NCBI GenBank assembly: GCA_903813345.2
Contig: CAIIXF020000001.1
Coordinates: 1,612,001 to 1,676,000 of the forward strand
Length of the DNA stretch: 64,000 bases
Direction: 5' to 3'
From: Owenia fusiformis
Lineage: Eukaryota
In this document: positions 1 through 45,454 of the stretch, one piece after another
Layout of the letters: each line of letters starts with the position of its first letter
Numbering within the stretch: position 1 is the first letter of the stretch
Notes under the pieces: model-generated
Databases searched by the model: none
Told to the model about the DNA's origin: nothing
Seen by the model: the letters and a program-made list of their open reading frames with translations, nothing else
Position numbers and translations under genes: made by a program

Positions 1-270
1 AGTGCAGTTACTACATATTTCATTAAGGAAATGTTCTGAACCTTTTGTTCGCATTTTGTGAATTTTCCATATTATCAAAGGCAATTGGAATATAAAGTGC
101 AGAATGGTGGGCAGATTTAAAATATGAAAATTGAATGATTCAAATATCCGGGTGAAAGTTTTATAACAAGAAACCTTCCAGGTAGTTTCAACCATATGTA
201 TCACTAAGTATATAGATTGTTCAGCATTGATTTCTATATACTATAGTGTTAATATGACTCTATGTTTCAG

Positions 271-3200
271 CTATGCCTTGACTGTCTCTGGAAGACACTT
301 GGCTGAGAAATGTTCAGACTTTGCCCAAGCTTATTACAACTTCAGTTCTGTAAGAGGAATACCTAAAATACCAGAAGCATCAAGGTAAGTACATACATGT
401 ATTTTATATTCTTGTATTCTAGTCATGATTACTGTGTGTATTATAGTTACCAACTAACACTACCTGCAGTAGGAAGTTAAGAATAGTATCCTATCCTATC
501 TTAGGAAATAAATCATACAAATGTAGGGCTACACCATGCCCAATAACAGAAAATAGGCAATTGGCTGTACAATGCATGAAAGAATTGTTATATATGCAGG
601 TTTACATTCCCTCATACTAGGGCTCATAGGGAGATGTTGTTTGAATCTCATAATGATAGCTATCCATTGTGTCGCATGTAGGCATTAATTCAAGTGCATT
701 ATACTATAGTATATATGTAAATGAAAATAACATAACAACTTGTATGCCTTAAGATCTGTGTTGTATGTGTCTTGCTTTAATGCACCTACCTATGTTTATG
801 GTTGGCTATATTTTAGTACTCAGATAGGTGCAGAAAGGCTGTGTTTGGTGATAGATTCACAAGAGAAAGAGAGGGAGAGGCTGATAGGGTTTGCTAGACA
901 GAGGGGAATTGTCACAAAAGTGCGAGAGCTACCTGCTGGCGACTATGTGTGGCTTCTGCTGCCCCCTGGTGCTGATGGGAGCCAGGATATACCTAGTAAT
1001 AGAGAAATGGTAGGCACCTACTTGTATCACCCTTGGTATACGCAGCTAACGAAAATTGACCGGTACGGGTCAAAAGCTGGACCGGTACGGGTTAACGGTT
1101 TTATTTGAATTTAAAATAGCCATAACTTGCTCAATATTGACTTCCTTGTGTCTAATTTGAAATATATGATGCCTCCCGATGCTTTTAAGTACCCCAATTT
1201 TTACAGATTTGTAAACGGACCAAAACTCTCTAAATGCGCATTTTTGCTCTTTTCTCTCGAGAACGACTGTCTCATTTTCACGATAACTTTTATTTAGTAC
1301 TTCTAACATATAAGATCTATTTTTCCCCATCAAGGTATGATGTAAATGACATGCTATTTACATCTTGTGAGTTTCAATGACGCGCGTTTGATTTTATAAA
1401 AAATGCCAAACTTTGTGACAAAGAATTTCATCCTGCTTGCAGCGAGAAGACGGACCGGTTCGGGGCAATCTGCTTGCAGCGAGAAGACGGACCGGTTCGG
1501 GGCAATAGCTGATGAAATTCTTTGTCACAAAGTTTGGCATTTTTTATAAAATTAAACGCGCATCATTGAAACTCACAAGATGTAAATAGCATGTCATTTA
1601 CATCATACCTTGATGGGGAAAAATAGATCTTAGAAGTACTAAATAAAAGTTATCGTGAAAATGAGACAGTCGTTCTCAAGAGAAAAGAGTATAAATGCGC
1701 ATTTAGAGAGTTTTGGTCCGTTTAAAAATCTGTAAAAAATTGGGGTACTTAAAAGCATCGGGAGGCATCATATATTTCAAATTAGACACGAGGAAGTCAA
1801 TATTGAGCAAGTTATGGCTGTTTTAAATTCAAATAAAACCGTTAACCCGTACCGGTCAATTTTCGTTAGCTGCGTATACCAAGGGTGTGTATGGAAGACA
1901 TTGTTGAGCTTATCTGTCTGGTTCCATAAATCCACCATCCCTTTATTTACAATGTCAGTTCATTGAAATATTGATCCCTAGGATAAACATTGAAGTCGTG
2001 TGTTTCATTTCCAAAAAAATTAAGATACTTTTACATTACTAATTTACTGCATTATACAGTACATGTATCTAAAAACGAATGTGCACTTAATTGAAAAAAA
2101 TATTCATTGAAAATTGAAGTTGCCAAAAATCTAAATTCTTACAAATTGCAAGGTCACTTAAAATTAACTTTATGGAAATTGTGAAATGTTTCACCCTGAA
2201 CACTTTATGTCTGATACATCCCTTTGGAGGGATCTGTGTTCGTTCCATTCAATTTGTATCCATTCAGTTTGTTGAATTATTAGATGCTGCCTTACATTGT
2301 GGAGAGGAAGTCCTGGGATGACCTCTTTGACAGTATGAGAACATCACGCTTTGACAAGCAGATTGTCAAAATGCAGGTAAGCATAGCAAGATCCCAAAAT
2401 GCAACCTTTAATTTTGGAAATAAAATTCAACCGCAGTAAAACCTTTAATTTTCCTGTATAGAAACATTAGTAGTGTACCATGGAGCAAACAATTGTATAT
2501 TTACTTATCTTTGTATTTGTGCAATAAAAAGAACACTGAAACTCAATTTCAAATTATTTAGATGCTTTCCTCAAGGCTCCTGAAACATTACATACCTGTA
2601 TATAACTTAAAAGGTTAAAATGAGTTCATTGAGAATTTGTTTCAGTTTGACAAGAGAGATTACTCACATGCTAATTAATTTACAAACATATTTTTCAGAG
2701 GTGTGGCCTGAAGAACATATTCTACCTTCTAGAGGGATCCATCAATGATACAAAAAGTAAACTGACTGATGAAAAGAAAACACAAATAAAGGTTTGCTGC
2801 TACTAACAATCTTAAAGGAATATTCCTTGGCAGACCCTTTCTCTCTTGATATGGTAGCTATAATCATATATATAGTTTCCATATTTAGGAAAACATGGGA
2901 AAATGTTTTAATATGGTCAATATTGATCATTTAAAAATCTAGTGCTTATTTCCAGTGAGCTGCCATCTTTTAAGATTTCTTGCAGGAAGTGATGTCATCA
3001 ACTCTCAACTTCTATAACCTTGCCCATAACAGTATAGGAAAGTAGCACAAAATCACTTCTAGGCAAGTGATCATTACTTTCTGTGCAAAAATATTTTCAG
3101 GGCTTGTCAACTTAGAATAAAAGAAGATATTTTCAGAATGATTAAATAAGATACAAAGTTGAAAAAGAATATTTGGCTGGTTTTGTAATTCTTAATAGCT

Positions 3201-6200
3201 CCTCACCTAATGCTATATGCAAAGTTGAGAGTCGATGACATCACTTCCTGTGTGAAATTTTAAAAGATGGCAGCTTACTGGAATTGAGCATCACATTTCT
3301 AAGTGATCAAATTTGACCATATCAAAACATTTTTGCGTGTTTTGCTAAACATGGCAAGCATATATATGGTTATAGCTACCATATGAGGAGAGAGATGGTT
3401 TGGCAAGGAATATTCCTTTAAGTATGAACCAATTAAAAACACTGAACTTTCAAACTAATAAAAATCTTAAGAATAAACAAATTAAGAAATATTGAACTTT
3501 ACAATCTTTAGCATTGGTGAGTGCTAATACATGTACAGTAGTTAAATACAGAAAAATATGATGTGCAACCATAGTGCACAAGTACATATTCACTTTAATA
3601 CAAAATAACAAATCAAAACAAAGCATTTATAGCTAAATTATGAGAAATCAAAGAGAAATCAAAGAAAGTCTAGATTTAAATATTTAATTATACCACCGAA
3701 TGAGGTGAGAGGGGGATATAATGAAGCCGTCCATCTGTCCATTTGTCTGTCCATTCGTGTGTCCTTGCGATGGCTCAAATACCAGTTGACGGATTTTATT
3801 CAAATTTTATAAGCTTAGGCCTTATGGGTGTAAAACCTCTGCTCGAGATGGAATTTTCAATATGGCTGCTCAATTCAAAATGGCCATCATTTTCATGAGA
3901 AATTTAAGCTTTGATAATTCATATACTATATTCAAATTTGAAGAATTTTGATCAAACTTTATTTGCTGATTCCTAGGGACATTAAGGAGCTTTGCTTAAG
4001 AATAAATTTTCAAGATGGCCGCAGAACTTCAAAATGGCCACCCTTTTTTGTAAGAAAAATGTAATCTTTGAAACCCAAATACCAGTGGATGGATTTGGTT
4101 CAATTTTCATATGCTGATGCCTAGGTACACAAGAGCTCTGCTCATGAAGACATTTTCAAGATGGCCACTGCATTTGAAAATGGCAGCTATTTTTCATAAA
4201 ATGTAATCTTTGATTACATTGGATCAGAAAATTCAAAATGGCTGCCTAGAGTTGAAATTCTCTATTACTCAGATATCTCTTCATACAAGGCATTAACATG
4301 ACAAAATGTCACCACTTCGTTCCTCAAATCTGAAATCTAAAGTCAGATTTGAAATTCTGAGAACTTGTAGATGGTTTTTAAAAAAAATTGGTCAATATCC
4401 CAGATGAGAGTGGAAATAATCTTGATTTACGTCATTAAAAATTCCGTCAAACTGATGTCATATTTGGAATCTACATGTAAAATTACATTTAGAAATGTGG
4501 TTTTGAAAAGAGTTGATCAACTTTGAATATTTAATTTTCTTTGAAAATGTTACTTCTAGGTCGGGGAGATTCCCCATAGACCCCATTTTGTTGTAAAACC
4601 ACAAAAAGTGAAAAAAAAATTTTCTTGTGTTGGGCAGATAATATTTTCTTTTACTGGACATATTTTAATTTGTATAACTATCAGATACATAAGGGTAATA
4701 TGAAAAGTGAACCACTAAAACTGATCCATATTCAAGTTTAAGGGAATTTTGTAATACCCTGCCATGTTAATTCCCCCGAATCAGCCACCTGGTGACGAAA
4801 CTGGTAACTACCTTCTCGCATCTGAGTAATTAGAAGCAAGTTAAAAAAAGACCTTTTTGACCTTGAGAAGGTCAAATCTAAAGTAAGATTTTAACTTCTG
4901 AAAATTTGTAGATCATTTAGGAAGACATTGTTGGATTATTCCATTGGAGAACTGTTATGGATTATTGAAATGCTTCTTGATCTGTAACCTTGTCAAGGAT
5001 CATCAAGGATATTTATCAACATTGAGAGATCATTGATTGGACATAAGTATGACAACATATTTTATATATCTCATTTAGTTTTTTCAAAATATAGGTACAT
5101 TGTTATATTTTAATTGCTGTTTTTACTTTCCTTTTTCCATTATTATTGAAGGTAACAGAATCTATTGCAATTCTAAACTGAATAATATGTGTATTGTATG
5201 ACCCAGTAGTAACATCTGCATGCAAGCTTTCTTAATTTATGTTTAAATGTCACATTTAACATTTTTCTCCTCTAGTGGATTTCATGATGCATGTCTTTTG
5301 TGAAAATGTTTTAGAACAAACATCACATTTGAAGTTCTTTCCTCAAGTATGAATTCTATAATGTGTGTTAAAGGAAGATTTATGCATAAATGTTTTAGAA
5401 CAAACATCACATTTGAAGTTCTTTTCTCCAGTATGAATTCTATAATGTGAGCTAAGATATGACTTTCTTGAAAATGTTTTAGAACAAACATCACATTTGA
5501 AGTTCTTTTCTCCAGTATGAATTCTATAGTGTAAGTTAAGAGTATCCTTTCGTCTAAATGTTTTAGAACAAACAGCGCATTTGAAGTCCTTTTCTCCGGT
5601 ATGAATTTTATAATGTAAGTTAAGAGATGACTTTTCTGTAAATGTTTTGGAACAATCATCACATTTGAATTTCTTTTCTCCAGTATGAATTCTATAATGT
5701 ATGACGAGAGAAGATTTATGCCTAAAGGTTTTAGAACAAACACCACATTTGAAGTTCTTTTCTCCAGTGTGAATTCTATAATGTCTGCTAAGATGTGACT
5801 TTCTCAAAAATGTTTTAGAACATACATCACATTTAAAGTTCTTTTCTGCAGTATGAATTCTATAATGTTGGTTAAGAATTGGCTTTCTTGAAAATGTTTT
5901 AGAACAAACATCACATTTGAAGTTCCTTTCTCCAGTATGAATTACATAATGAGCGTTAAGAGATGACTTTCTTGAAAATGTTTTAGAACAAACATCACAT
6001 TTGAAGTTCTTTTCTCAAGTATGAATTCTATAATGTTTGTTGAGAGAAGATTTATGCATAAATGTTTTAGAACAAACATCACATTTGAAGTTCTTTTCTC
6101 CAGTATGAATTCTATAATGTGAGCTAAGATTTGACTTCCTTGAAAATGTTTTAGAGCAAACATCACAATTAAAGTTCTTTTCTCCAGTATGAATTCTATA

Positions 6201-9200
6201 ATGTTCGTTAAGCTGTGACTTTCTTGAAAATGTTTTAGAACAAATATCACATTTGAAGTTCTTTTCTCCAGAATGAATTCTATAGTATAAGTTAAGAGAA
6301 GCTTTTTGTGTAAATGTTTTAGAACAAATCTTGCATTTGAAGTTTTTTTCTCCAGTATGGATTCTATAATGTTCCACTAGTACACACTTCCATTTACACA
6401 CTCTATGGCATATATCACAAATATGTGTTCCTTTGTGGCCATTTCCTCGTGCCTTAAGACCAGTAGTAATGATTTTACCACTAGAAGTATCAGCATTCAT
6501 CAAAGAAGTAGAACTATTTGTCATACTTTTGGCAGTATTTATCCCATCAACATTGATTATCACGCCATCAGCATAATTTATTACACTTTTGGGATGATGT
6601 ATCATTACACTAGCATTATTTTTCATAAAACCAGCATCATTTATCACACCATCAGTGTTAGTGACCTTGCTACCATAGTCCATGATGTTTTCCATAGTAA
6701 TGTTGAATTTGCATTAATTAATTCCCTGGTCTTGTGTATGCCTCAGTTCCTGAATAAAGTACATGTATATGCATTTATTCAATGATGGTGAACCTTCTAG
6801 CAATCTCAGATAGTCCCTGATATAAATCCTTTAGTGTTATGCTGTATGGTGTGGATTTCATGTTTCACATTCATGTCACTCTATTATTGGGTTTCTTGTC
6901 CAAAGAGTCATTTTCTGTTCGATTCAAAATAGCATTTTCCGGTCTAATAGAGTCAAATAAACATTGTAGACCTTTCTGTCATGTGTCATACTTTTTTCAG
7001 AATATTTTAGAACAGCATCATTGAATAGTAAATAGCAGTCTTTTCTTGGTCTTATTTGAAACACTTGTTTGGGTCGTATTGTACCACTGTATTATTCTCA
7101 TACACATAATCAATTGTAAGTTTATCTGCTTACAGATTGTCACTGTTACTCTACTTACTATATTTACTCTAGTAGGCTCATGATAAGCTTAGATATAGAT
7201 TGGATAAGTCCAATTTGTTTGGCTGTAATGAAGATTGTACAGCACCATCCAAGTACAACACATTATGTGATTTGATAGGTTATCATGTATATAAACATGG
7301 CTAATGAGGGTCTTTCTAATTCTTTATTATCCCATTGAACAAAGTTGGGTGCTATAGAGAACGGCTCCATATGTATGTCTGTACATCTGTACGTCCTTAC
7401 ATCCATCTGTTTGGGCAATAACTCAACTACCATTGACTCCATATTGTTTATAATTTATATGTCCCATGTGAGTTCAAGCTCTACTCGAAAGCCAATTTTC
7501 AAAACGGCTGCCAGTTGGCCAACATTTCAGTGTCAAGTTTACAGTTTTTAGTGCAACAAATAAAACTGTAATATAGATATATTTTGAGTGAAAAAAATAT
7601 ATAGGATTTTGAACATTTTTATGTGTGCTATTTTAGGTTGTTGCTACAACTGGAAAAGTTTGGACCGATTTTGTTGGAATTTATATGTGAATACTAAGAA
7701 GCATATTAGACTTTCTAATTTCACTTTGGCTGGAAAGCAGCCATTTTGAAAAAAAGATGCCATTTTTATGTTTGTTATTTTACATTTTTTGCTATAACTG
7801 AAAAACAGTGGAGGAAATTTGTTGGAATTTTATATGTGCATATTGCACTGCTGTCTAATGACAATTAGGCTAATTGGCAGCCATTTCCACAAATGGCAGT
7901 CATGGCTGTTTGATAGGATTCACTACGCCTTGGTGTTGCTGTTATCTAGTTAATTTTTTTTTATTTGCAAACCTGGAAAAATTTGGATGTGCCATTTCAT
8001 TTAATAAAATACAATATATTATTAACATAAAGTCTCATGCTGTTTTATTTAAGACCAGGATCCAAAAGCTGCAATTTGAGGAAGACATATTTGTGAATTA
8101 CACAGCATCTTGGCTGAAAACGGTCCAGTGGCTTGTCCAGATCACTTCCCTTATAGCAGATGCATACAGATCAGGTGTGTATTCAGGAAATTAATTCCAA
8201 AATTAAAGATATAATATATTTTCTTGATAAGGATTACCATTTATAATGAATAATTCATAACCTTTGGAAAATTCTACCTCCTCTTAAGGAACTTAAGGAA
8301 TCTTGAAATTAGTCTGGGATTTTTTAAAAGAATTTCTTATTTTTTAGTATAAGACCATCTCTCTTTGAATGAATTTTCAAAGCGTCTACAGTACATGTAT
8401 GTTCAAATAAGTATTAATATTCAAGTGATATATTTCACATGGACATTTAGTTGTTTCAAGACCCTGGACCCCCCCCCCTCTTTCCTCTTTTATCATGTAA
8501 TGTGTTAAAGTAGATAAGAGGGGTCCACAGCCTTGAATCAAGACTAATGAACATTGTATTCAGTAAATCTAGGCTATATCTTCCTCCTTTCAAAGGACAA
8601 GTCTCAGTTCGGAGAACAGTCTCCTGGGCAAAAAATTATTTTTATGAAAATATAGAAATATCACCAAAATTAAATTATGAATATTCAAAAGAGAACATTT
8701 AAATCGATAAGATGTATAAATATCACAATTGCCCTCGGCAGGGATAACTGTGCAATAGACCGATTCAATAGAATACAAGTCTTGATTTGATGAAAAAAGT
8801 TCATCAGTGTACTGCGCTAATAATTTTTTTATGAAAAATCTAGAAATATCACCCAAAGTAAATTATAACTCTATTCAAAAGAAGACATTCAAATCTATAT
8901 TATGTAAAAAAATCAAATTTGTCTGAAGCAGGGATAATGCTCAATGAGACCAATGAACTTCGTTCTCCAAACCGAGAATAGTCCTTTAATGTAACAATGA
9001 CTATCATGATTCCAAAATATTTCCCTTTTAGGCATGGACACCCATGATAGGTTGATGAGCTATGCAGAGTTCTGTGAGAGAGTACAACATGGGGATAAAA
9101 GACACAGGGACAGGAGACCAAGGGAATATCATACTTGGCCAGCTGGTTTCTTTGTAGACTTGTTGTTCAGGTGAGGATCAAAAGTGTTATTTAATCTTAC

Positions 9201-12200
9201 AATTTACACACAGGGTGAAAACATTAAAGGTGCAACAATTAGTGCAGGAGGGCCATTCAACAATCATCGACTAGTGTCAAAATGTATTTAAGTTTGGATA
9301 TTTCATCAAGTCTAACATATATTTTTATTATCTACAAAGAAACCCTCTGGATGAACATTATTTCAGCTGATATTCCTCTTGAAACGTAGTAGATCTGAAA
9401 AATCTATAAGTGGAACACCCTTTATAGAAGCTTTGAACTGAATTCACACTTCTTAATGATAGTTTATACATACATTTCGAGAAAATAGGTATGTCAAAGA
9501 ACACTGGCATGTAGCGGCCCTGATATCGATAAATTCTACACGCAATATAACCCGATTCTAGATGCTTGGTTAAAACTTTACACGAAAAAGCCTCGATATC
9601 CGGGCATTTACTCTTACACTGAACTGAAAATAGCATCATCTAAACGTATATGTGTTGGCTTCCGGGTAAGTTTATCAACATTTATACTCAATTGAAAGAG
9701 CAGTCGTGCTTATATCGTGTACCAGTTTGATTATTTTATATGTGTGTGTATTTATAATATGATAGCCTAGTAATACCGTGTCGTTAGAACAACTGCTAGA
9801 TATCGAACTGATGACCTGAAATTACATTATTGGACTGATCGCGCATCTGATATTAAATGATTAATTTGCATTGAATCTGATATTAACTTGCAACCCAATA
9901 CCATGCCTTTACATTTGAATGATAACACGGCCTAATATTCTAATTCATTATACGTCCATTGCAGGCCAAAAATGTTTCAATGTGGATATTGTAATGCACA
10001 CGAGAATACATTCGATTTGTATATTGATCATACATCAATTGAACATGGAGATTTTCCTGTACACTTTTCCCAAACCTGTGGAATAGACTAGATGCAAGTA
10101 GAAATTATCTTGATTTACGTCATCAAATATTCAAAATTCAGTCAAAGTGATGTCATATTTGAAATCTACATGTATAGATACATCTAAAAATATGGTTTCG
10201 AAAATTGTTTATCAACTTTGAAATCTTTTTTTAGATATTTTTGAAAATAATTAAAAAATGTAAAAAGAAATTTTTTGAAAAAATTCGAAACCATCGAATA
10301 TCACTTTTTATTCCATAGTTAGCATGATATCCATAGGATAACATGTCAAAATAAAAACGGTATTTTTGAAATCAGTGGTAAAATATGATATTTTTGACAA
10401 ATTTTCACTTAAAGTGTGCACCAAAGTTTAATACTGCGCAGGCGCAGCGTTCTCGCTATATAAAGAGATCACCAGGTACACGATTCAGAGGTAAGCAAGG
10501 AAGGCGAACAATCTCCGTCTCGTGATGATTTCCCGTATAATCGTAACCAGGGAAGTTTCACCATTGAAATTGAAAATTACTATTAGATATACTTTGTAGA
10601 TGTTATTTATGAAGCTATTTAGTGTATGTATCAATCAAATGGCTCATTTTGGACATATAAAAAGTATTTGTCTTTTGTTTCCCCGGGAATCGTATTCCCA
10701 TGTAGTACACACATAAATAGTGTACATTATGTAGTACATATTGAATAGCCTGGTATAGTAACACCGTGTTTTTATAATATTGAAGGGCATGCTGATTGTA
10801 CACACGAGTACAAGCATGCTAGAAGGCCTAATTTTATATAGCTTGCATACCTAAATAAAAAATAAACCCTTCTAATCCCCTTATGTAAATACGGCGGTAT
10901 ACGTAGCCAGATTTATCGGAATCTTTAACCATAGCATACGGTGTTTTAGCCATGACATACGGCGCCGTATGCCATGGTTTATGGATTTTTGCTACTTCAG
11001 ACTCAAAACGAGGCTAAGTGACAATATCGCCGTATCGTTTGGAAAATTTGTTTTAAATCACTTAATTCACGATGATTCTGATGATGACTTTAACTATGGA
11101 ATAAAAAGAACATCCTATGATTTACTCGTGATATGATTTTAATCCACTCATGGATGTTGATATCTGCACTCTCTCGCTACGCTCATGCGTGCAGATATCA
11201 TATCCATTTGTGGATAAAAATCATATCACTCATAAATCATAGGATATCCTCTATATATATATTTATCGTCTATTATCCTATGACAAGTAGAGTAGAGAAA
11301 AAATAAAAAAAATTGAAAAATTCAAAAAAGGAAATAAGATTAATTTTTTAGAAAACTACTTGGTATATGATAAAGCAGATATGTGCGGTCAGTTTGGATA
11401 CGGGGTTTATCCCTCGTGAGATATGCACGTCTACGTTCGGTCCCTATGGTCCATCAGGCAGATGGAGATTATCCTATATTCCATACCTGATGAGGTTTCA
11501 GAGACATATCAACCGGGAATATATTCCATATCCGGCAAATATTTTTCGTATGTCCCGCTCCAACGGAGCTCCGGGACATATAAATCGTATGTCCTGCTCA
11601 AAAATAAATTTAAAAATAAATTCGGGAAAAAAATGTGAAAATAAAAATTTGAAAAAAAAATTGTGGAAAAAATTATGTAAAAAAAATTGGGGAAAAAAAA
11701 TTTGAATTCCCAAATTTTTTTTTCATTTTTGAAAAAAAATTGAAAATAAAAAAATTAAAAAAAAATTGTGGAAGAAAATTATGTTAAAAAAATATTGAAA
11801 AAAATTGAAACAAATTTCTTGAAAATATTCTGAAAAAAAATTATGCAAAAAAATGTGAAAAAAAAATTGGAAAAAATGTGAAAAATTTGGGAAAAAATTT
11901 AATTTTTGAAAAAAATTGAAAACAAATTTGGAAAAAATTGAATTTTTTTGAAAATGATAACATATTTTGCAAGTAAACACACCAGATCATATGGGATACA
12001 TGCTTATTATTTCAAACCTCATCAGGTATGGAATACAACAGTTATGCACGGTCGATTTGGATACAGGAAATATACTTGGGATATACAATACATCTTCCCT
12101 TGGTCCCTTCGGTCCCTCGGGAAGATATATTGTATATCCCTCGGGATATTCCCTGTATCCAAAACCTCCCAGTGCATAACCCCTATATATAGTTTAGCAT

Positions 12201-15200
12201 GATATGTACTTCTTTCTGTAACTGGAATACGATTCTAATATACAAGTAACACATACGTATTCCCGGGGAACCATAAATATTTTGTGTAGGGTGTGGACAT
12301 TTTTCTTTTCGTTTCTCTAAAATCAGATTATTCTCATAAAATTCATACAAAGTTGGGCCTAAGCCTCTATTTTCGTATTCTGCATGTTAAGATATTTATA
12401 ATGTAAAACCTAAGAGATAAATTCAATGTCTTCAGTTGAGAATAAGTATAAGGTAAATGTGTGAATTCTGCTTGTTGTTGCACTATTTTTATAATAAACA
12501 AGGTTCGATACGCAACACTGAATAGACTGCAGTCATAGCTTAGTTGTAAAGAAAACAAAAGAAGTTGGGACGTGGTCATGCTTGAATACGATTTTAGATA
12601 TATCGCCGTTTACACTTGTTGAAATCGGCCTGTATTAATTTCAACAGGTGATCGGTGTACAAGGGCATATATTTGAGTTATTGGTTTAATGATAAGTATG
12701 ACCTATGAGTGGGTAATGTTTTACAAATGCATGAAACAAATACTCCAATGGCCTAATCTCAATTTTCCTGCATAAACTATTACATTGAAATGATGGTCAT
12801 TTGCTCTCTAACTTCCGCACTGCATACGTAACTTCGTAACAATTCAATAAGCCAAGACAGGACCGCTATAATCGCTACATGCCAGTGAAAGAAGATGTTA
12901 AGCCAAATTGACCTGATAGCTCAGAAAAAATAAAAATTTTCGACTTTTCTTTCTACAGTCCTTGTTGCCCCTTTAAGGCTGAAACATTAAGGCTGAGAAC
13001 ATTATTGCCACAATTCAGTATATTTGCATTCAGTCAATTTGTCAAACATTATTGCCACAATTTAGTATATTAGCATTCAGTCACTTGTCAAACATTATTG
13101 CCACAATTCAGTATATTGGCATTCAGTCAATTGCCCAATAGGCAACCAGTTTTTCCAAGTTCATTGGTAAGAGTGTAAAGTGATTACCATTGGCAGCCAG
13201 GTTGCCGTGAGTTTTTAACCTTGTTTATATATAAAATAACTACAAACCAGGGGTATAGACAGGAACTAAAATTAGAGGAGGTTAAATTAATTAGTGAGGC
13301 TTAGTGCTAAATGAAGATTATCACTACCTTTGAATTGTTAACACAATTTAAGTTGGAATTCCTGTTAAATTTCTTTAAGATTTTGAGTTAGGTTTCTCAT
13401 CTACATGTACATGTACGACGTAGCTCATGCCTTGCTAGTGGCTACACCCATGTACACTTATCATAGTCCTTTTATGAATGTAGTTTACAGGATAAAATAT
13501 ATTAAGTCATACATTTACTTCATACATTTCTTTTAGAGATAACCATGGTGGTGGTGCTATGATGCAGACTGTGAAGACTGAGCTGGGAATACAAGGGAAA
13601 TATGGCCCTAGAAAGCACCTGCTTGTTATACAGGGACTAGAGGATTACAATAAGGTATATATAGAGTACATATTAATGAATACTAAATAGTTTGTAATTG
13701 ATATAAATCAGTGGTTATGAAATAACTCTAAAAAACTGAATTCACTAGGGCAGAGCATTTGTACTGAAAGGAGCGTTTTCAGTACAAATATGTACTGAAA
13801 AATGTACTAGTTTTGTTTCAGTACAAATTTAAGTATATTTTTGTACTGAAAAATGCACTGAATTTTTTTCAGTATATTTTTCAGTACAAATTCATGTACT
13901 GAAAAATATACTGAATTTTAAGTACAAATTGTATATTTTTCAGTACAAATTGAAGTATAAATATGTACTGAAAAATGTACTGAATTTTAAGGACAAATTT
14001 AAGTGCAAAAATATACTGAAAAATGCACTGAAAATTTAAGGATAAATTTAAGTACAAATATATACTGAAAAATGTACTGAAATTTAAGTGCAAAAGTCAG
14101 TATAAAAATGTACTGAAAAATATACTGAAATTTAAGGATAATTTTAAGTATAAATATATGCAATGAGAAATATTTGTGCCCAATAATGGAAATAAGAGAA
14201 AACGTAAATGTAAGGCATACTTTATAAACTCTAAATCACTCAAAAAGTTCTTCGAATGGTGAAAAAGTGCATGATTTTAAAAGAATTTTTGGCGGGGGGG
14301 GGTTCGCTTGGACCCCTGAAACCCCCCCCCCCCCCCAACAGGAATGCTATTACATTATGAAATTATTTTGGATGCTTCCTTTACAGCATCCTTTATTGTT
14401 GTATTGTATTTTGTTTACCACCAATGAAGGTGAGCAATACCTCTTGGCTATGCCCCGTATATATACGATCGTAATTTACGTAATTAACATGGAAGATAGA
14501 CCCAGAAACCCCTCCTTGAAGGAGCCCTGTGTTCTTTTATGTGCACTTATACATAGACATACAAGTACACACCACAGCCTTTTGTACGAGTTGCGGACCA
14601 CTCAGTCAAACACCCTGAAGTACTTCACGCAAACAAGCAAATTTAGTCTTGCCTGAACCGGGGATCGAATCCGGGACCTATTGCGTAAGAGGTACCTGCG
14701 CTACCGCTGAGCTACACGGGTGGACTTAAAAGAGTCTCTCTGTAATCAGGTTTGTTTTGCCTTGTCAAAATATTTTGTTTTGTTGGTGGATTAATAAAGT
14801 TTCTTTAGACACATCCTTTATAAAAGCAGACTCTAATCAAACTGGAGAGGCTAGGTTTACTGTAATCAAGTGATTTCCTTTTTAGAAGTTATGTTGATGG
14901 ATTTATTAAAAACGGCCTAAATCACTCAAAAAGTTCTTAGAATGGTGAAAAAGTGCATGATTTTAAAATAATTTTTGACCGGGGGGGGGGGGGTTCGCTT
15001 GGACCCCTGAACCCCCCCCCCCCCCCCCCCCCCCCAGGAATGCTATTACATTATGAAATTATTTTGGATGCTTCCTTTACAGCAGCCTTTAACCAAACTT
15101 AAAAGAGTCTCTCTGTTATCAGGTTTGTTCTGCCTTGTCAAAATATTTTGTTTTGTTAATGGATGAATAAAGTTTCTTTAGACACATCCTTTAAAGCAGA

Positions 15201-18200
15201 CTCTAATCAAACTGGAGAGGCTAGGTTTACTGTAATCAAGTGTTTTCCTTTTAATAAGTTATGTTTTTGGATTTAATTATTTAAGACGCATCCTGTATAA
15301 ATTTCTTTTTAGCCCGATCAAACCTATCAAATATAATGCACATATAAGGGTTATGTACTGGGAGGTTTTGGATACCCATATTTCCTGAGGGATAAACCTT
15401 TTATTTAAAACTGATCGTACATAACATGTGTATTCCATACCTTTTGAGGTTTCTAGATACATTCTACCTTATTAAGTTCTAAAATTCAAAAACATTAAAG
15501 GTACATATTTTCTCAGTCTTAAAAATAAGATTTTCATGAGATTTTCACTCATATTGCTTGAGCAAATTAATTAATTGATATCAAAATTAAAATATATAAC
15601 ATGAACATAGAACCTCATTTGTTCGAGTAAAGCAAAATCCATGGTATAGATGTCAAAGTCAGGAAGATGTCGTAATTCAAAATCTAAGTATATTTTTCAG
15701 TATAAATTTACACTTAAATATGCCCTTAAATTTCAGTATATTTTTCAGTACATATTTGCACTTAAAATCACACTTAAATTTCAGTATATTTTTAAGTACA
15801 TATTTGCACTTAAAATCACACTTAAAATTCAGTATATTTATCAGTATAGATACGAGGGGTGATCCAAAAGTCTTGGACGCCCCACTCTAACTTTGCTATT
15901 TTCTAATATAATTACATGAAACTTTCAGATAATAAAGATCAACATCTAAACAACTTTGTGTATAAGTTTCAACAGAAACTAATATATTTTAGCTACTTTT
16001 CTAAATATTTTTTTTTTGATACCGGGTCCCTGCCACCCGGAACGGTATTTAAATATTGCAAATCACGTCACAACTGTTATAATGTGGCAAATACTTTAGG
16101 TGCAGGTGCACAACCTAACACCAGTCATGATATGGGAGAATTTCCAATTTTCAGTCTGAGTGTCATCTGCCATGATCATCTTCACATATTAAGACCTACT
16201 TTTCAACATATTTTCCACGAATTTGAACACATTTTTCATACCGCTTTACCAATGAATGAAAGACATTTATGAAACGGCCATTGCCTTTGTGATACAAATG
16301 CTGCTGGAGTGCCACTCTAAACCTCATCCAATGAGTAAAAAACATTTTCTTTCAACCCTCCTTTCAACTTGGAGAAAAGGAAGAAAATCACACAAAGCCA
16401 TATCTAGACTGTATCGTGCATATAGTAGTTGCTCAATGTCAAATATAGTGAAAATATATTGTAGTATTCTTTGTTCCACTTTGATTTCTTTCATGTTCTG
16501 CATTTCAGCAGCCATCTTGGAGCAAAAATGACACCAGAATGAGGGTTGATTGTCTGATGTCATTTTCTTAGAACTTGACATATACGGCCATTGCCATATG
16601 TGACATTATTATTAAAAAACAATTAATTGGTTGCCTAGTAACAAAGGAAGTAAACTAACATGGTTTAACATTCAAAATTTAAGGAAAGAAAGTGGTCAAG
16701 ACTTGCAAAACAAGTCAAATAGCGGCAACGTTTAAGGCTGAAAGTTGCCATGTGCGAATACCAGTGATCTCCCCAGGATTTTTTCTCAGGTGGGTGCAAA
16801 ATTCTTATTTTTACGATTCAAACCAAAATTGGTCAAAATATGCCAATTTTTCATGATTTTTCTCATTATCAAGTGGGTGCAAATGGATTTTCAGGTGGGT
16901 GCAAGCCTATTTTCAAAATCTCAGGTGGGTGCTGCACCCACTTGCTATAATGCTGGGGAGATCACTGAATACCGTTCCGGTTGGCAGGGTCACTATATAA
17001 ATAACTATCTAGAAAACTACATAAAATATATCAGTTCACCATGAAATTAATACACAATGTAGTTAGGTTGTTGGTCTTTATTATTGGAAACTTTAAAGTG
17101 ATTTTAGCAAAAATCAACAAAATTAGAGCAGGGCGTCCAAGACTTTTGGATCACCCCTCGTATATACTGAAAAATGTACTTTAAATTTCAGTACATTTTT
17201 CAGTACATATTTATACTGAAATTTGCACTGAAATTTTAAGTATATTTTTCAGTACATATTTATACTGAAAAATATACTTAAAAATTCAGTACATTTTTCA
17301 GTACATATTTGTACTGAAAACGCTCCTTTCAGTACAAATGCTCTGCCCTAGTGATTGTACCACACAAAGATTGCTTCTCAGACCCCACATTTTACAATTA
17401 CAATTAACAATTACAATTACAATTTACAATTACAATTACAATTTTTTACAATTCCAAATTTTGTCTGCATCCATCCAAACTTTTCTAAGACTTAATTGTG
17501 ATGGCACTAAGAAGCAAAAGATTTCTAAAATCAACATGTTGGACAAACTAATTAATACACTAGTACTGTAAACATTTAATCAATAGAGAATCTATTCAAG
17601 AATAACAATATTACACATTTTGTAGTTTAACAGTTATGACATATTGCATTTGTAATCATAGCAGATCACTGTACTTGTTGGAATCTGATATAACAACAGA
17701 GGATAAAAGCTTATTGACATGATATACTGTTCAGTATAAATGGTAAAATACAATCTGTGTGCAGCATAACAATCACATTAAAACAGTAACTTAATGCAAA
17801 TGTTGTCCTATAATATAATAAATTATACAAGGAATATTATTTAGGTTAATTTCGATTGCAGTGTCGACAGCGTTACATTGACAAGGCTCTGAGTGATTTC
17901 AGCAACAATAAAGGTGGCAGTGTGGTTGACATCGTGAACGACCAGCTAGGCCCTCTGGTGGCAGATTTGGTGCACTATGATGTGACATCATTTTGGCAGT
18001 TACACATCCAGGTATAGTGAGGAATTTGGGTGATTTACATGTACATAATACATATTTATATTAGATTGTAGTTATGTGTCACCATCATATTGTCATAGCC
18101 ATTGATCTTTTTGGCTACCACTGATGTCCAGCTTTGACATCTGTAACACTTGTTACACATTTGTAATTGTAACCAGGTGGTTTTCTTATTGTCATGTTAG

Positions 18201-21200
18201 TTTTGCCATCCCCAAGAATTGATGACATATTGTTATGACAACTGTGCTCACCTTAACACATGTATCCAAGTGTCGCCATAAATAGGTAGTGACATATTGA
18301 TACAGCCACCATTTTTCATGACTGGCAGTTGGTATCCGTAACAAATTGTTACATCTATGCAACTATTTGTAGTAACTTACTAGATGGTGGTATTGGGTCA
18401 TGTTAATGCCTTGTCACTTATAATGATATTGTTCCCGTTTACTATATGTTAATCCCATGTTATGTCAGCTGCATTATCTCAAATATGTCCATATTACATG
18501 TATCATGTGTTATCATGTATTTCTAGGTTTGTGTTGGTGTTGTTATACAGAGAACTGAGAAACCCCAGGAGGCAACAGACATTCAGGAACAGTTTATGCA
18601 GGGCCCAGGTACAAAACCACCATATCCAAATACCCTTCAATATATATCAAGTGAACCGTAATGTACATTTAGTCAACTTATCTACTTAAGGCTTTCGTGA
18701 TTATTGAATTGAAGACATACAATCAGAGTGATTGGCTGTTATTTTCCTATCCAGTATACAATGTATGTACATCCTATACAATTTAATCTTATGAATTTCC
18801 AGGTGATCATCCTGATGACCATATGCCAAGACAGCAAAACCTTAACAATTATGTAAGACCTCCTCCCACACCCCAGTCCGCTGCCAATAGTACACAGCCT
18901 GTCAAACCTGCCTCAAGGCACAAGTCTCCAACTCTCCCAACCCAAGCCCCACAAGTGCACACTCTACCCTCCACATCTAATGCCACCATTACAACTGCTG
19001 ATATAGGACAAATACAAGGTGTCCAAGAATCCCTTAACAATACAGTTGAAATACAGGGTGGTCAAGAATCTCAAGATGATGATCTTAGAAAAGCTATAGA
19101 ATTAAGCTTAAGACAAAGCCAAAATAGTTGTAATGTTAGAGCAGATGGACTAGGTCCAGTATCTTCCAATAGTGCCAATAAGTATAGTGCAAATGCATCA
19201 GAAGCAAAAGGTGCAACAGATGAAGGTCAACTCTCTGAAGAGGAACAGTTAAAAAGGGTTTTAGAATTAAGTAGGATTGAAACCGCAATGAACAGTGATC
19301 TAGTCAATGACTCTGATTATGCCTCTAAACTTGACAGAGGTCATGTAACCAATGCAAAAGCTATATATAAAGATGAGGCAAGACCAACACCATGCAAAAC
19401 ATTAGACAGAAATGAAAACCATGTGCCATATAGAGGAACAACATATTACACTGATGAAGTCCTTATTAGTAAAGCACCAGGTGCAAGAACTACAACTAAA
19501 CCAACAGCCGTTGATGAAGAGGAGGAGGAGATATTCAGAAGAGCTTTAGAATCTCTTGATAAACCAAAGATCAAGGAAGAACCAGTTGAGACCACCACTA
19601 CTGCAGAACCAATAGGAGCCAATAATGATGTTGAGTTTAAGAAGGCTCTTGAAGTAAGTCTTTTGGAAAGTCAAATTAAAAATGAGCCAATAGATTCAAG
19701 TGAGCAGTCTTGTCATCCTGTCAGACCACAGCAAAGACTTTCAAACATTGTTCATAACAGAATGGACATTACAAGCGATCATTTGAAAAGTAATCCTTCT
19801 GCAAGCAATGTCCATGTTATTAAAGAAGAAAAGATGGATAATGCCCACCCTGAGGATGATGATCTGAAAAAGGCTTTACAATTGAGTCTTATTGAAAGCC
19901 AGTTTGAGAAAGATCCAATTATAGCTCAACAATATTCGCCAGTTTGTTCCTCAATAGACACTAGGTCAGGTGACAGCTATGAGCCAATACTGAACAAGGA
20001 ATTATTCTCAATATCTGATGATCCAAATGTACAACATGACTTAGAGAAAAGTTTTCATGAAGATGAAAACAAAGTTGCCAAAAAAGGAGGAAACTCTAAG
20101 AAAAGACCTAGTCCAGATAGTGAACCACATGCCCCAACTAAAATCCAGAAACTGTATGATACACCAATTCAGAATCTAAGTGAAGAGGAACAGTTCAGAC
20201 TTGCCATGGAGGAAAGTATGAAAGAACCAGTGCCAAAAACTCAACTATATAAATCTGATATCCATGCTCCACCAAATGCCCCGAAATCAAGAGCTCAAGG
20301 TGTTCTGTCAGATGAGGAATATGCGAGAAAGCTGCAAGAAGAGCTTAACCAAACATCACCAAACAATAATGCTGATAAAGATGCAATCCTAGCTAGAAGA
20401 CTAAGTCTCAGCCAAGACCCAGTACAATATAAGCAATACATAGAAGATGCTAAGCTTGCTGTGAAACTAGAGGCAGGTGATATAGATATAATAGATGTAC
20501 CTGTTGATACCTTTGGGCCCCCAGGGGCTAGGGCTTTCAGTACACCATCTAAAGCCACATCTAGAAGGAAGGCAACAGTCATGAAACAGCCATCCAGAAC
20601 TGCATTAGGGAGCCCTATTGTGCATGTACCAGATACAGACAGCCAGGTAAGTATTCCATTGTACTCATGTTAGCATCAAGTCAAGTGTGTACTCGTCAGG
20701 TGTACCTGTATTTATTCTGCTTCATTCAAATATTACTATTTTTGGCGAAAGGAGTCTGCAAAGGTGCCCCAAAAGCAGTGAATGAAGAAATATAATCGGA
20801 TTAGCTAATTAAGCAAATCCACCTAATTAAGCTAATTAGGCAACTTTAATTAGCCTATAATAGCTTATTCCTTAAAGTAAGTCATATAAATGGTAAATTC
20901 TTAACATACTTACATAAATTGCTGATCAGTTGTTATTTCATACTAAACCTAATGAGGTGATAGGGGCTGGGTAGGTGGGTTTTTGCAATGCAGCTGACTG
21001 TTTGCTGGCTCTAGCTAGTCTAACTGAAGTTCTAACATAATTCAGTGCCTCTGTTCTGATGCCTTCATCACAAATTACCTATAAATCTACATTTTGGCTT
21101 CTAATTGGTATACTGCAAGAACATTCAAGCATGTATAAACTCTGCATATTGTAAGCTTAATTAACTAAAGGTCAGCATGGGGAAATAAAACTTAAAGGAC

Positions 21201-24200
21201 CTGTCCAACCTTATATGCCACCCTAAGCAAAACAAGCTTAAGCTTTACGGCACCAATTTCAAACACCTTTTCAATGCTTCCTTTTCAATTATTTCATAAT
21301 TTTCATGTGCAGATGCTAATAGAATAATTTGCTGTGAAGCATGATGTACTGAAAGCGTAAACCTTAATATTGATTTACAGTCAGGTTATAACAAGATAAA
21401 GTCTAATATTTTCAGTTAGCAGAATACAGACGCTTGCAGCAGATGAAACACAGTGGGAAGACTGCCAACATTTCTGGCCATCCCAGTCCTCGTAGTCCAC
21501 ATGTAAATGGGCCACATACACCTAAGGGGGCAAAATCTGTACCGACTGCTACATATACTCCTATGTCTAAGCAGGTTAGCTCCTCGTCTACCTCGACATA
21601 CATCCCTACGGCTGATAGGTCCATAAAACAACATGGCCGTATTCAACCTGGAACCCCTAACTTAGCCAAGCAATTGACAGGTTTGTGAATTGTTTGGAAA
21701 TATCTATGAGTTTTGAGGTAGAAGAGGGAACTCCCTCACCAAAACTTTACATATTTTGACTTGTCTCAACTATTATGTCACCACTATTATGTCACCACTA
21801 TGAAATGATGACATATTGTCATACCATACTTTTTTATCAAATCGTTACACTTTTGTAAACATTTACAGCTGAAGACATCATGTCATGTGTACTCATAGTG
21901 TCAATTTGCCTCACCTATTTTGGGATTCTGGCAATGCCCCTTGTGTCTTGATAAAGTAAAACAACAGAAATGAAAAATTGATTTATTAAATGTACATTGA
22001 AGTACTTGATGATGAAAAGGCCTTACAATTGCAACTTACAAATACATGTACCTTACAAATGCAACTATTCGTGCAGAAATTGTCTGGGATGATTTCTTTT
22101 CTTACAAAACTCAATATTACAATCAGTTTATTTATGACTGATGTTTACTTTTGTAGCAAAGGTACTCTATTGTCTGGTTAATTAAATTTTAATCTACATG
22201 GTATTTAAAAGAAACAATTTAATTTAAGATTCATGACTTATTTTATGAGCAGCATTACAGGAAATTGATATTGCATTTTTATGTTTAGAAAAGGAAATAA
22301 TCAATTAGAAAGTTGTTACTGTACAAATTGTTCAATTTAGTTGAACATGATATTTATACACTGATTAATTGCATACAAAGTGCAGAACTTTTATTATTCA
22401 ATTTATTTTTTATAAATCAATTTTTCAAGTTTGACCCACTTGTGTTTATAAAGTGTGTCTCAAATAAACTTTATGATTCAATCCCAGTGATTCAATTAGA
22501 TATCTCAAGATATATCCCCCTCCCCCTTCTCACCTTAATGAGCTATACTTCAGTTTTCATGTAATTTATAGGTGTGGTCCCACAAGCTGTAGTCAGTCCA
22601 AGAGTGCACTCCAACCCTGCTGTAACCCACAGGCCAGCCAGCCATACTCAACATGTAGCAGACCAACATATTGTGCACCCATTTAATAACACTCCCATCA
22701 TACCAAACCCTGACCTAACCCTGACCAATAATCCACTATCAAGCAAACATGATACAATTACGAAGGAGTTTCCTAATCCAAAATTAGCTTCTGGGGTCAA
22801 TCAAGGAACAGTGGCTCAGGTTCATGGAGAGAACACAGACCAAGGTTTTGCATCATCTCCATGCAAATATCAAGCAGAGGTTAAAGGTCATCAGGGGGTC
22901 AAGGTCAAAGATGAAGTTGTCATTATAGATAGTGATAGTGATGATGACCTACCACCAAGTGGAGTTGTGAAGCCAGGCAGCTTCAATCCTAAAGTGGGTA
23001 CAAAACAAGGTACGCTTTAAACGATTTATTTTCTCATAAGCTTCTAATGTATATTCATGTTATTTCTCATTGAATCATTTAATTTTCAATTAAAATTATT
23101 TCTTTTTGTTATTTAATTAATTGATTTGACTTTCATTTTTCATATTGCTTGCACCTTTGCATTTTGAATGTTGAGAAATCCAAAATATGTAAATGAAATG
23201 TCAGTTTTTTGTGATAATTTGTTTTGAGCTTGGAAGATGTTTTTTCTCCTAACCATTGATGTATCTCAGGTGGCACATTCACACATGGAGCAGAGCCACA
23301 CCAGTCCAACATCAAGTGTGGCAACTGTGGCAGACTGGGACACACAAGGACATCCAGTAGATGTCCTCATTACTACTCACAAGAAGAACATGATCGCAGA
23401 GAGGTGAGATATCCATAATTGCATAAAGGGCCACTGTAAAACCCATGTAACTGAAATGCCCTTGGTTCCACTAAAATGTGATCTACTTACGAGGGTAGAA
23501 TGACATTAAGTCAACTTTGGAGTGGTTCACTTATATTATACTGTAAGTTATAGAGGTTTGATTAACAACAGAAAATATGTTCACATGGTAACAAATCAGT
23601 TGATGAAGCATGCATTGGAACAATGTATAATAATATATTACAGTGTGGACACTATCAAACAGTATTGTCTAATCACAAGCAATGATACCTGGATAAAATC
23701 CTCACGCGGTCCTAACTTCGACCGTTAATTTGAATTTTTGACCTACCAGATGCTCGAAAATCAGGGATTGCGAGTTTCATACTGCACCGTTTTTCTTCAA
23801 ACTTATACCATTAAAAGCAAAACAAAATTGCCTTTCTGTCGGTGCATTACTTTATTGTAAAGAGTCCCTCGTTCTAGCAGCGTTTTGGTCCCCGGCTGTT
23901 AGAAGGCCTTCTTACACCTGGGGACCAAAATGCCGATGGAAGGGACTCTGTTTAGGAGAATAATGTACCAACAGAAATGGATTTTTGTTATGCTTTGAAT
24001 GGAACAAGTTTGAAGAAAAACGGTGCAGTATGAGACTCATAATCCTTGATTTTCAAACATCCGGTAGGCCAAAATTTCAAATTAACAGTCGAAGTTAACA
24101 CCGCGTGATCCTGCACATTCTATTTCCTATGCAATTTTGCTAAATAATTGATTCTTATTGTGTTTTCAATAGGCCAAGAAAGCTAAAGCAAGAGAGAAGA

Positions 24201-24895
24201 GAGAAGCTGCAGAGAGGGAAGATCAGCGCCTCCTTGATAATCTTGTAAGCAACACATATGACACATATGAAATATATTCACAAGTCTCTGGTTTTCTGTT
24301 AGATTGAAATTAGTAGAGGATGTGAATCTGTAAGGGGGAGACACCGAGGAGTATTTCAAAACAAGAAACGATTAGTCATAAAAAAGCGAACCTCTATTAT
24401 CCAAACTATGATCTTATGTAAAAAGAAACAATGTTAACCACAAAACCACCCCCCCCCCCGCCCCTTTCCACCATACATCATTCATAAATTAATTTCATAA
24501 TGAAGGTGGTACTCCTATATATCAATAATAACAATGCAGAAGCTTTTCTCGTCAGACCAAATACACAGCAACATGAGTTTGCTTGAATAAATTATTGACA
24601 ATGATACATCATCCATATACCAAACTTACCCTACTCCTACAGAACTACTGTAGTGTTTTCAAAATTACTCTGAACTTTTATTTTCTGTTTCCAGCAACGT
24701 AAGCATGATCGAACGCAGGAGTTGATTGAACAGCAGGAGAGAGAGAAACGCCTTAAACAACAACAAGCGCTGAATGCTGTGAATGCAGTCTTTGAAACTC
24801 AGATTGAGCCAGTCGTCGCTCAGAATCAGGAATACGAGGCAATGATCGCAGCCTTGGAGAACAAGCAGAGAAAGAATGCCCGAAAGAAAAAATAA
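271..24895 (+). CDS. XPF/MUS81-family structure-specific endonuclease-like protein (winged-helix end, active ERCC4, EME1-like inactive ERCC4, UIM/MIU/SIM tail, CCHC knuckle, coiled coil); 5' end lies outside the window
   Basis: Exons with AG/GT ends and consistent phases: 271-384, 817-1009, 2284-2376, 2699-2791, 8054-8174, 9032-9170, 13537-13654, 17862-18011, 18527-18608, 18803-20646, 21416-21680, 22572-23009, 23270-23403, 24173-24244, 24695-24895 (TAA). The spliced translation contains YALTVSGRHLAEK (MUS81 winged-helix-like), LVIDSQE...LPAGDYVW...IVERKSWDDL...RFDKQIVKMQRCGLKNIFYLLEG (ERCC4 GD/ERKxxxD signature) and CGNCGRLGHTRTSSRCPHY. Confidence 0.85.
1028..1887. mobile_element. Foldback MITE, CAC termini with 5-bp TSD (Transib-like signature)
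   Basis: Runs CACCCTTGGTATACG...CGTATACCAAGGGTG, with near-perfect arms 1028-1432 and 1511-1887. TGTAT flanks both sides. A central 37-bp unit is duplicated (1433-1469, 1470-1506). Confidence 0.85.
2816..3417. mobile_element. Kolobok-like palindromic MITE (TTAA TSD)
   Basis: TTAA|AGGAATATTCCTTG ... CAAGGAATATTCCT|TTAA with long diverged inverted arms. Confidence 0.8.
3688..4920. mobile_element. Fragments of Helentron-associated (HINE/DINE-like) repeats
   Basis: TTATACC start, (gtcc)-type microsatellite at about 3728-3755 and repeated CAAAATGGC units. From about 4286, acaaggcattaacatg..atgtcaccac and satellite units shared with the element at 54580-56197. Confidence 0.55.
5255..6695 (-). pseudogene. 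Tandem C2H2 zinc-finger array (13 fingers plus a degenerate one), nested antisense in an intron; interrupted by two in-frame TGA
   Basis: One frame from 6695 gives repeated FKCDVCSKTFxxKSxLxxHYRIHTGEKN units (84-bp period). The linker GGA is TGA at 6015-6017 and 5343-5345. There is an in-frame stop 7 codons upstream of the ATG and a frameshifted final finger. Confidence 0.8.
7323..7950 (+). mobile_element. HINE/Helitron-like non-autonomous repeat
   Basis: Starts TTTATTATCCCAT and ends TTATCTAGT. Alignable by eye to 47657-48480. Confidence 0.55.
8594..8985. mobile_element. Degenerate Kolobok-like MITE with internal ~185-bp duplication
   Basis: AGGACAAGTCTCAGTTCGGAGAAC is inverted to GTTCTCCAAACCGAGAATAGTCCT|TTAA; the left flank is TCAA. 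Confidence 0.55.
11104..11252. mobile_element. Short palindromic MITE (possibly Crypton-type)
   Basis: ATCCTATGATTTA..GTGATATGATTTT..ATCCAC arms are inverted around a central CTCGCTACGCTC. Confidence 0.55.
11362..12188. mobile_element. Non-autonomous element with internal inverted repeats and A-rich core
   Basis: ATTCCATACCTGATGAGGTTT (about 11478) is inverted at about 12014. Terminal hairpin at about 12058-12152 and poly-A-rich 11600-11950. Its right end recurs inverted at about 15343. Confidence 0.5.
12998..13133. repeat. 47-bp tandem repeat, ~3 copies
   Basis: AACATTATTGCCACAATTCAGTATATT(T/A/G)GCATTCAGTCA... starting at 12998, 13045 and 13092. Confidence 0.85.
14396..14725 (-). mobile_element. 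tRNA-derived SINE
   Basis: Minus-strand head with A box TAGCTCAGCGG and B box GATTCGATCCC. The body GGCTGTGGTGTGTAC..TAAGTGCACATAAAAGAAC resembles conserved SINE central domains. (ACAAT)n-like tail. Confidence 0.8.
15853..17160. mobile_element. Tc1/mariner non-autonomous element nested in the CACTA element
   Basis: TA|CGAGGGGTGATCCAAAAGTCTTGGACGCCC...GGGCGTCCAAGACTTTTGGATCACCCCTCG|TA, a 30-bp perfect TIR. Confidence 0.9.
16762..16967. mobile_element. hAT-like MITE nested in the mariner element
   Basis: CAGTGATCTCCCCAG...CTGGGGAGATCACTG with flanking direct repeat AATAC. Confidence 0.8.
17391..17453. repeat. (TACAAT)n microsatellite
   Basis: tttacaattacaattaacaattacaattac... Confidence 0.85.
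23703..24107. mobile_element. Palindromic MITE, CAC termini with 5-bp TSD (Transib-like signature)
   Basis: ATCCT|CACGCGGT...ACCGCGTG|ATCCT with long diverged inverted arms. Confidence 0.8.
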
Positions 24896-45206: not shown

Positions 45207-45454
45207 TTTTCTGGCACGACGCAGGTACCTACGTCCAGTTTTAGTACATAAACTATTAGCCTACACTGTCAAGAGTCCACATTTATGTTCCTTATCACAG
45301 TAGTGAACTCAAGAGGTCGACCTAACATCTATAGTAGTAAAGACATTGTTATTGACTTTGTCATTTACAGGTTTTAGGTGAGAAAATTGCATATTTTCAG
45401 TCATGATAAAATTACAGTAAAACCTGTTTTAGTTAACACCTCGCTCGTCTCTCT

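Follow-up and report, generated by a model that had tools for sequence, protein, structure and literature searches.

A MUS81 paralogue of Owenia fusiformis with an active-type nuclease domain and a putative degenerate partner domain on the same chain

A gene at the beginning of a 64,000-nucleotide stretch of the Owenia fusiformis genome (assembly GCA_903813345.2, contig CAIIXF020000001.1, positions 1,612,001 to 1,676,000 of the forward strand; here the window) encodes a protein of 1747 residues, P0001, which by its sequence is a paralogue of MUS81 and not canonical MUS81. It carries a complete, active-type ERCC4 nuclease domain followed, where MUS81 would continue into a tandem helix-hairpin-helix domain, (HhH)2, by a second conserved domain that structure models suggest is a degenerate relative of the first. 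The family to which P0001 belongs is conserved and uncharacterised; the literature searched yielded no paper describing it.

Taken whole, our reading is of a MUS81 paralogue with an active-type nuclease, a degenerate second domain that would serve as a pseudo-partner in cis, and guidance by ubiquitin-interacting motifs (UIMs); on the models in hand we give it somewhat better than even prospects. An earlier note, made from the letters of the window, had proposed a MUS81 and an EME1 nuclease domain joined in one polypeptide. Part of that interpretation survives – the active-type nuclease and an architecture that is not that of MUS81 – while the identification of the second region with EME1 does not.

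Results

The first domain is a nuclease domain of MUS81 type. Pfam ERCC4 matches residues 446-589 of the spliced protein (E 4.8e-24), two single exons being sufficient for a match by themselves (E 0.0023 and 7.6e-6), and the significant PDB sequence matches are to MUS81 nuclease domains only (E 1.3e-10 to 8.8e-10, residues 442-595), the sole remaining row being MCM8 at E 0.36. Four plus-strand exons build the domain: 817..1009 (residues 434-498) opens it with IDSQE (D447, E450) and GDYVW (D476); 2284..2376 (residues 499-529) holds the catalytic strand VERKSWDD (E505, R506, K507, D511) and RFDKQ; 2699..2791 (residues 530-560) supplies the strand FYLLEGS; and 8054..8174 (residues 561-600) the closing helix-strand-helix (IFVNYTASWLKTVQWL). 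That exons 817-8174 encode a complete catalytic ERCC4 domain, as the earlier note had claimed, is thus borne out both by the Pfam match and by the catalytic motif GDXnERKX3D, which is present in full together with its upstream acidic residues (D447, E450, G475-D476, E505-R506-K507, D511). In the family alignment D447 and E450 are invariant in 8/8 sequences, and D476, E505, R506, K507 and D511 in 9/9; the closing element has its own family-invariant residues (W580, K582, W586, L587, T591).

Upstream of the nuclease some 105 residues match the winged helix of canonical MUS81 (hhalign probability 97.7%, E 1.4e-12); the Pfam winged-helix family PF21136 gave no match on P0001 at E<=1. The C-terminal end of this winged helix is encoded by exon 271..384 (plus strand, approximately residues 396-433), whose first codon is split with an upstream exon and whose AG acceptor lies at 269-270. 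The MUS81 nuclease matches, the invariant catalytic residues and the MUS81 winged helix together argue, at the level of sequence, that P0001 is a descendant of MUS81 and that it probably cuts DNA.

The gene model itself agrees with a database protein. A protein database search returned P0001 at 100% identity to the translation of exon 817-1009, under the record 'unnamed protein product [Owenia fusiformis]' and the automatic UniRef name MUS81. Chained by coordinate with a script, 15 exons of the window (approximately 271-24895, plus strand) reproduce residues 396-1747 exactly; the introns between them are GT...AG in 14 of 14 cases, with acceptors rich in pyrimidine, and the DNA is eukaryotic, with a GC content of 34-37%. 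The eight exons in 817-18608 (817-1009, 2284-2376, 2699-2791, 8054-8174, 9032-9170, 13537-13654, 17862-18011 and 18527-18608) are present as previously described, joined by GT-AG introns, and the borders 817, 8174, 9032 and 18608 are true exon ends; the peptides quoted from them all occur in the list of open reading frames (ORFs) and in P0001. The agreement of exons and protein over this span is far beyond chance. These eight plus-strand exons had been taken as the extent of the gene, which is much larger: residues 1-395 are encoded upstream of the window, and the 15 window exons run on to the end of the gene at 24895.

The second region comprises residues 601-764 and is encoded by exons 9032-18608 on the plus strand. 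Exon 9032..9170 (residues 601-647) begins with a linker helix, LMSYAEF, common with MUS81, and goes on to the first strand of the second domain, REYHTW, and a helix; 13537..13654 (residues 647-686) contributes the strand KHLLVIQ and the invariant YNK (N685, K686); 17862..18011 (residues 687-736) contributes helices with the invariant H724, D726 and Q736; and 18527..18608 (residues 737-764) provides the last strand and helix, with VVIQRTE and the invariant R745 and E747. Where canonical MUS81 carries (HhH)2, this region is modelled as alpha/beta with three strands. Neither HHH_8 nor EME1-MUS81_C matches anywhere in the full 1747 residues at E<=1, and the C-terminal (HhH)2 family PF21292 is missing at E<=1 on the whole protein and at E<=10 on the second region; the N-terminal HhH family PF14716 likewise gave no match on P0001 at E<=1 (the N-terminus lies outside the window). 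The earlier view that the protein differs from canonical MUS81 in having no (HhH)2 after the nuclease therefore holds for the full protein, which has no HhH domain match, and the full-length model revealed none of the unseen (HhH)2 exons that would make it an ordinary MUS81.

The second region is conserved together with the nuclease. A HMMER scan of 1.84 billion representatives recovered 13 further proteins at E<=1e-30, 12 of which cover it, and seven orthologues (P0002-P0007, P0011) align without a break over both regions at 33-41% identity. A search with the profile of the second region recovered members of the P0001 family only (7/5590 candidates). At E<=10 the region matches no Pfam family and no PDB chain, save an unrelated chance connexin, and against 79 canonical MUS81 C-termini hhalign aligned the linker helix alone (probability 2.8%). 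It contains neither GD nor ERK, the strand aligned to the ERK strand being REYHTW (family consensus HVW), so that the reported lack of ERK is confirmed and there is no catalytic motif. The specific sequence likeness to EME1/Mms4 was not recovered: there is no PDB, Pfam or profile match to EME1. A weak profile alignment to nuclease domains pairs LLVIQGLE with YLVE and LQV..GVyVvRTE..edT with TQV.dGF.VK.T...ET, an order that agrees with the structural match described below.

Evidence as to what this domain is comes from its predicted fold. Modelled alone from 12 sequences it is alpha/beta (predicted local distance difference test, pLDDT, 82.6; predicted template modelling score, pTM, 0.74), with the order strand 631-637, two helices, strand 673-679, three helices, strand 742-746 and a helix. 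Compared with 48,161 chains, its top 11 matches all belong to one small superfamily – that of the neighbouring nuclease domain – and the best unrelated chain trails them by about 3 Z units. They are led by Hef (Z 7.9, root-mean-square deviation 2.5 over 90 residues, chain 44..134) and EME1 (Z 7.5, 102 residues, 17% identity), and continue with MUS81 (Z 6.8), Aeropyrum XPF (Z 6.7), ERCC1 (Z 6.4 and, in another row, 5.4), EME2 and FANCM (both Z 5.8), FAAP24 (Z 5.4 and 5.0) and a chain of the Zip2:Spo16 complex (Z 4.9). It is the exclusive presence of one family at the top, and not any single Z value, that argues for likeness to ERCC4. The match always starts at the equivalent of the ERK strand and extends as far as the known domains do; the models therefore lend moderate support to reading the second region as an ERCC4 fold reduced to its C-terminal two-thirds, with two helices inserted and the first strands missing. 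The helix-strand-helix is its best-conserved part. A dead second ERCC4-like domain in cis, as had been proposed, accordingly has moderate support as to its family, stands as to its want of ERK, and falls as to completeness and kinship: the domain is truncated and not specifically EME1-like.

Beyond the second domain lies the large exon 18803..20646 (plus strand, residues 764-1378), which encodes a low-complexity tail with six clear UIMs. The Pfam family PF02809 matches at E 3.8e-10 on this exon and at 6.2e-8 on P0001 (32.4 bits against a cut-off of 21, in 4 stretches), and a pattern scan finds at least six motifs, at residues 855, 909, 1001, 1039, 1114 and 1224. Exons 21416-21680 and 22572-23009 (residues 1378-1613) are rich in serine, proline and threonine and have no domain match; exon 23270..23403 (residues 1613-1657) encodes a CCHC zinc knuckle at residues 1627-1649 (Pfam zf-CCHC_6, E 1e-7); and the last two, 24173-24244 and 24695-24895, all again on the plus strand, encode a charged C-terminus, probably a coiled coil to judge by eye only, and the stop codon. 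At the other end of the protein there are weak B-box matches, and in the Lingula orthologue a weak ubiquitin-family match.

The family is spread across several phyla. Members come from a brachiopod (Lingula), bivalves (Pecten, Mizuhopecten, Saccostrea, Pinctada, Mytilus, Mya), gastropods (three Haliotis species, Batillaria, Littorina), the hemichordate Ptychodera, the amphioxus Branchiostoma and the annelid Owenia; gene models made independently in more than 10 species show an architecture like that of P0001, under the RefSeq name 'uncharacterized'. A domain scan of orthologues found ERCC4 in 5/5, UIMs in 4/5, CCHC in 2/5 and HhH in 0/5. All 120 vertebrate MUS81 proteins examined carry PF14716, PF21136, PF02732 and PF21292 in 550-807 residues (the query was hagfish MUS81, and these are the species-named proteins listed among 342 matches, all vertebrate). 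A FastTree tree built on 127 nuclease domains places the family in a clade of its own, with 17 tips and SH-like support of 87, inside a 23-tip clade with support of 95 whose other tips are two dictyostelid proteins, two metagenome or read-assembly proteins, a nematode MUS81 and a SAP-Macro protein.

Three MUS81-like proteins that are non-animal or of no assigned place, P0143 and P0149 from Synstelium polycarpum and P0018 from a read assembly, have no HhH matches, and their post-nuclease regions weakly match the second-domain profile (20, 8.9 and 20 bits, respectively). Since two of these outsiders match at about 20 bits, the two-domain module may predate animals. In the nuclease tree the family has as its nearest outgroup a metagenome record of 2150 residues (P0067) with SAP, ERCC4, Macro and OB-fold domains. 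This distant relative, along with the UIM/CCHC tail and the weak B-box and ubiquitin-like N-termini, suggests that MUS81-like nuclease cores get joined to readers of damage-induced modifications. In Ptychodera flava the orthologue is divided between two adjacent models with consecutive RefSeq accessions (P0016 and P0014), the break falling inside the nuclease domain; this is probably an artefact of annotation.

Discussion

A central issue is how such a protein would work. Characterised eukaryotic XPF-family nucleases consist of two subunits that make two contacts, one between the nuclease and the nuclease-like domain and one between their (HhH)2 domains; in XPF-ERCC1 the former pairing is made through the closing helix-strand-helix, as it is in MUS81-EME1 and FANCM-FAAP24 (PMC7048804), and canonical subunits are described as needing (HhH)2 for junction binding (PMC3834828). 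In P0001 a conserved alpha/beta domain, about 135 residues long, stands in place of (HhH)2 after a MUS81-like linker helix; its predicted fold consists of an equivalent of the ERK strand, two helices, a strand, further helices and a closing helix-strand-helix. We propose that this is a degenerate nuclease-like domain which has retained the pairing helix-strand-helix of the XPF family and which, docked in cis against the nuclease domain, serves as an inbuilt pseudo-partner. Ubiquitylated proteins on damaged or stalled DNA would draw in the enzyme by way of its UIM array; there the nuclease would cut branched DNA held by the winged helix in place of (HhH)2.

We infer a pseudo-dimer in cis because the helix-strand-helix is kept, because the equivalent element of the nuclease holds invariant residues, and because the two-domain model reaches a pTM of 0.86, which implies a fixed mutual arrangement of nuclease and second domain. 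Recruitment through ubiquitin is what the UIM tail points to. A single-chain mechanism uniting the roles of MUS81 and EME1 is, on these models, plausible but unproven. A bolder version has P0001 as a single-chain XPF-family endonuclease, its partner surface occupied by a truncated pseudo-nuclease, independent of EME1 and (HhH)2, steered by its UIMs, and belonging to an ancient bilaterian or possibly older class of repair or defence nucleases lost in vertebrates and ecdysozoans; we hold this to be possible, though on balance doubtful.

A number of observations weigh against our reading. In sequence the second region shows no similarity to the nuclease domain of its own family (hhalign probability 0.12%) and gives a weak signal against 102 canonical MUS81 nuclease domains (6.8%). 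The structure models were built on 11-12 sequences, the second domain keeps only three strands, and every one of its Z values is below 8, a range which the tool describes as 'possibly a common arrangement'. The structural search for a second ERCC4 fold gave a divided answer: the ranked comparison placed XPF-family chains in the top 11 positions, whereas Foldseek with the second domain alone returned nothing at E<=0.001 (best E 0.1). That the packing in cis proceeds through the helix-strand-helix is drawn from a single source, the pTM. A language-model lead from the ESM Atlas to EME1-MUS81_C/HhH clusters scored 0.76-0.82, under the level of trust, and was not adopted.

Such observations leave room for other explanations. 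The second region could be a lineage-specific alpha/beta domain of no ERCC4 descent, a DNA- or protein-binding substitute for (HhH)2 whose likeness is convergent or merely that of a generic Rossmann-like three-layer fold. We think this unlikely: convergence sits uneasily with the finding that the top 11 of 48,161 chains come from a single small superfamily, to which the adjoining domain also belongs, and outscore every unrelated chain by about 3 Z units, and the weak profile alignment follows the order of the structural match. Alternatively the nuclease may still pair in trans – with EME1, EME2 or another molecule of P0001 – by way of the usual surface, the second domain being an accessory. 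The characterised eukaryotic nucleases of the family are all described as obligate dimers (PMC3834828, PMC7048804), and Table 1 of an inventory of gastropod genomes includes EME1 (PMC11110935), so that at least one phylum having the P0001 family does possess a partner; yet (HhH)2, the second obligate pairing surface, is missing from P0001, and the pTM of the two-domain model implies a fixed contact between its second domain and its nuclease domain. Pairing in trans consequently strikes us as improbable, if far from idle.

Much less credible is that P0001 is the plain Owenia orthologue of MUS81, with HhH exons unseen or the gene poorly modelled. The automatic name and the best PDB matches are indeed those of MUS81, but 1747 residues without HHH_8 or EME1-MUS81_C at E<=1, the four canonical Pfam domains and compact length of all 120 listed vertebrate proteins, the recurrence of the P0001 architecture in independently modelled, 'uncharacterized' genes of more than 10 species, and the 17-tip clade with support of 87 leave it very little probability. 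We give as little credence to a chimera, in which nuclease, second region and UIM tail would belong to neighbouring genes: the divided Ptychodera orthologue could be read in this way, but the alignments of seven orthologues run through both regions without interruption, UIM and CCHC also lie downstream in orthologues, the phases of the exons fit together and every one of the 14 introns is GT-AG.

Set beside known systems, P0001 shares with canonical MUS81 the winged helix, the GDXnERKX3D ERCC4 nuclease – its best match in sequence and in structure – and the linker helix after it. It differs in having neither the N-terminal HhH nor the C-terminal (HhH)2, in being about three times longer, and in adding a weak ubiquitin-like/B-box N-terminus, a second ERCC4-like domain, UIMs and a CCHC knuckle. 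Unlike the nuclease-like domains of EME1, EME2, ERCC1 and FAAP24, its putative counterpart stands on the nuclease's own chain, lacks the first third of the fold, is followed by no (HhH)2 and has no detectable sequence similarity to them; the archaeal Hef and XPF nuclease domains, in contrast, are active, full-length and form homodimers in trans. Among ubiquitin-guided repair nucleases and scaffolds, FAN1 and SLX4 carry UBZ domains and RAP80 carries UIMs. P0001 resembles these in joining a structure-specific nuclease or scaffold to ubiquitin-binding motifs, and differs in that its nuclease fold is ERCC4 and its reader a UIM array; the analogy suggests that P0001 too may be recruited to lesions through ubiquitylation.

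If our reading is correct, an animal paralogue that has dispensed with (HhH)2 and holds a nuclease-like remnant in cis represents a different way to build an XPF-family enzyme, and offers a minimal single-chain model for what a dead partner domain contributes; its UIM array would tie a MUS81-type nuclease directly to ubiquitin signalling. There is also a practical consequence, in that the automatic database name 'MUS81' can mislead inventories of meiosis and repair genes in invertebrates. The gastropod inventory lists a 'MUS81' of 3.3-3.5 kb aligned length for Potamopyrgus (PMC11110935). This entry might be a member of the P0001 family, and hints that a paralogue of this type may be mistaken for MUS81.

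Other features of the window

Downstream of the gene, at 26254-33133 and 35170-45260, lie two tandem OATP/SLCO organic-anion-transporter genes on the minus strand; the first large exon of each gives a Pfam OATP match (E 8e-43 and 7e-40). A minus-strand ORF of 297 residues at 52461-53354 has a cysteine-rich C-terminus and a weak interleukin-17 match (E 6e-4, under the Pfam cut-off), and may encode an IL-17-like cystine-knot ligand.

The introns of the gene contain elements of their own. Intron 1 holds, at 1028-1887, an almost perfect foldback element (about 860 bp) with nested inverted arms of 46-127 nt that are 93-98% complementary; it looks like a miniature inverted-repeat transposable element or a foldback transposon. 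In intron 3, at 5343-6713 on the minus strand, about 13 C2H2 zinc fingers are encoded in one frame, with an in-frame stop at 6014/6015 in the place of an expected linker glycine codon: the array represents either a zinc-finger pseudogene or a pair of ORFs within the intron. Finally, AT-rich, minisatellite-like repeats at 13770-14230, 15650-15890 and 17120-17350, which on either strand yield FQYIFQYKF-type peptides in several frames, are probably copies of one dispersed repeat family.

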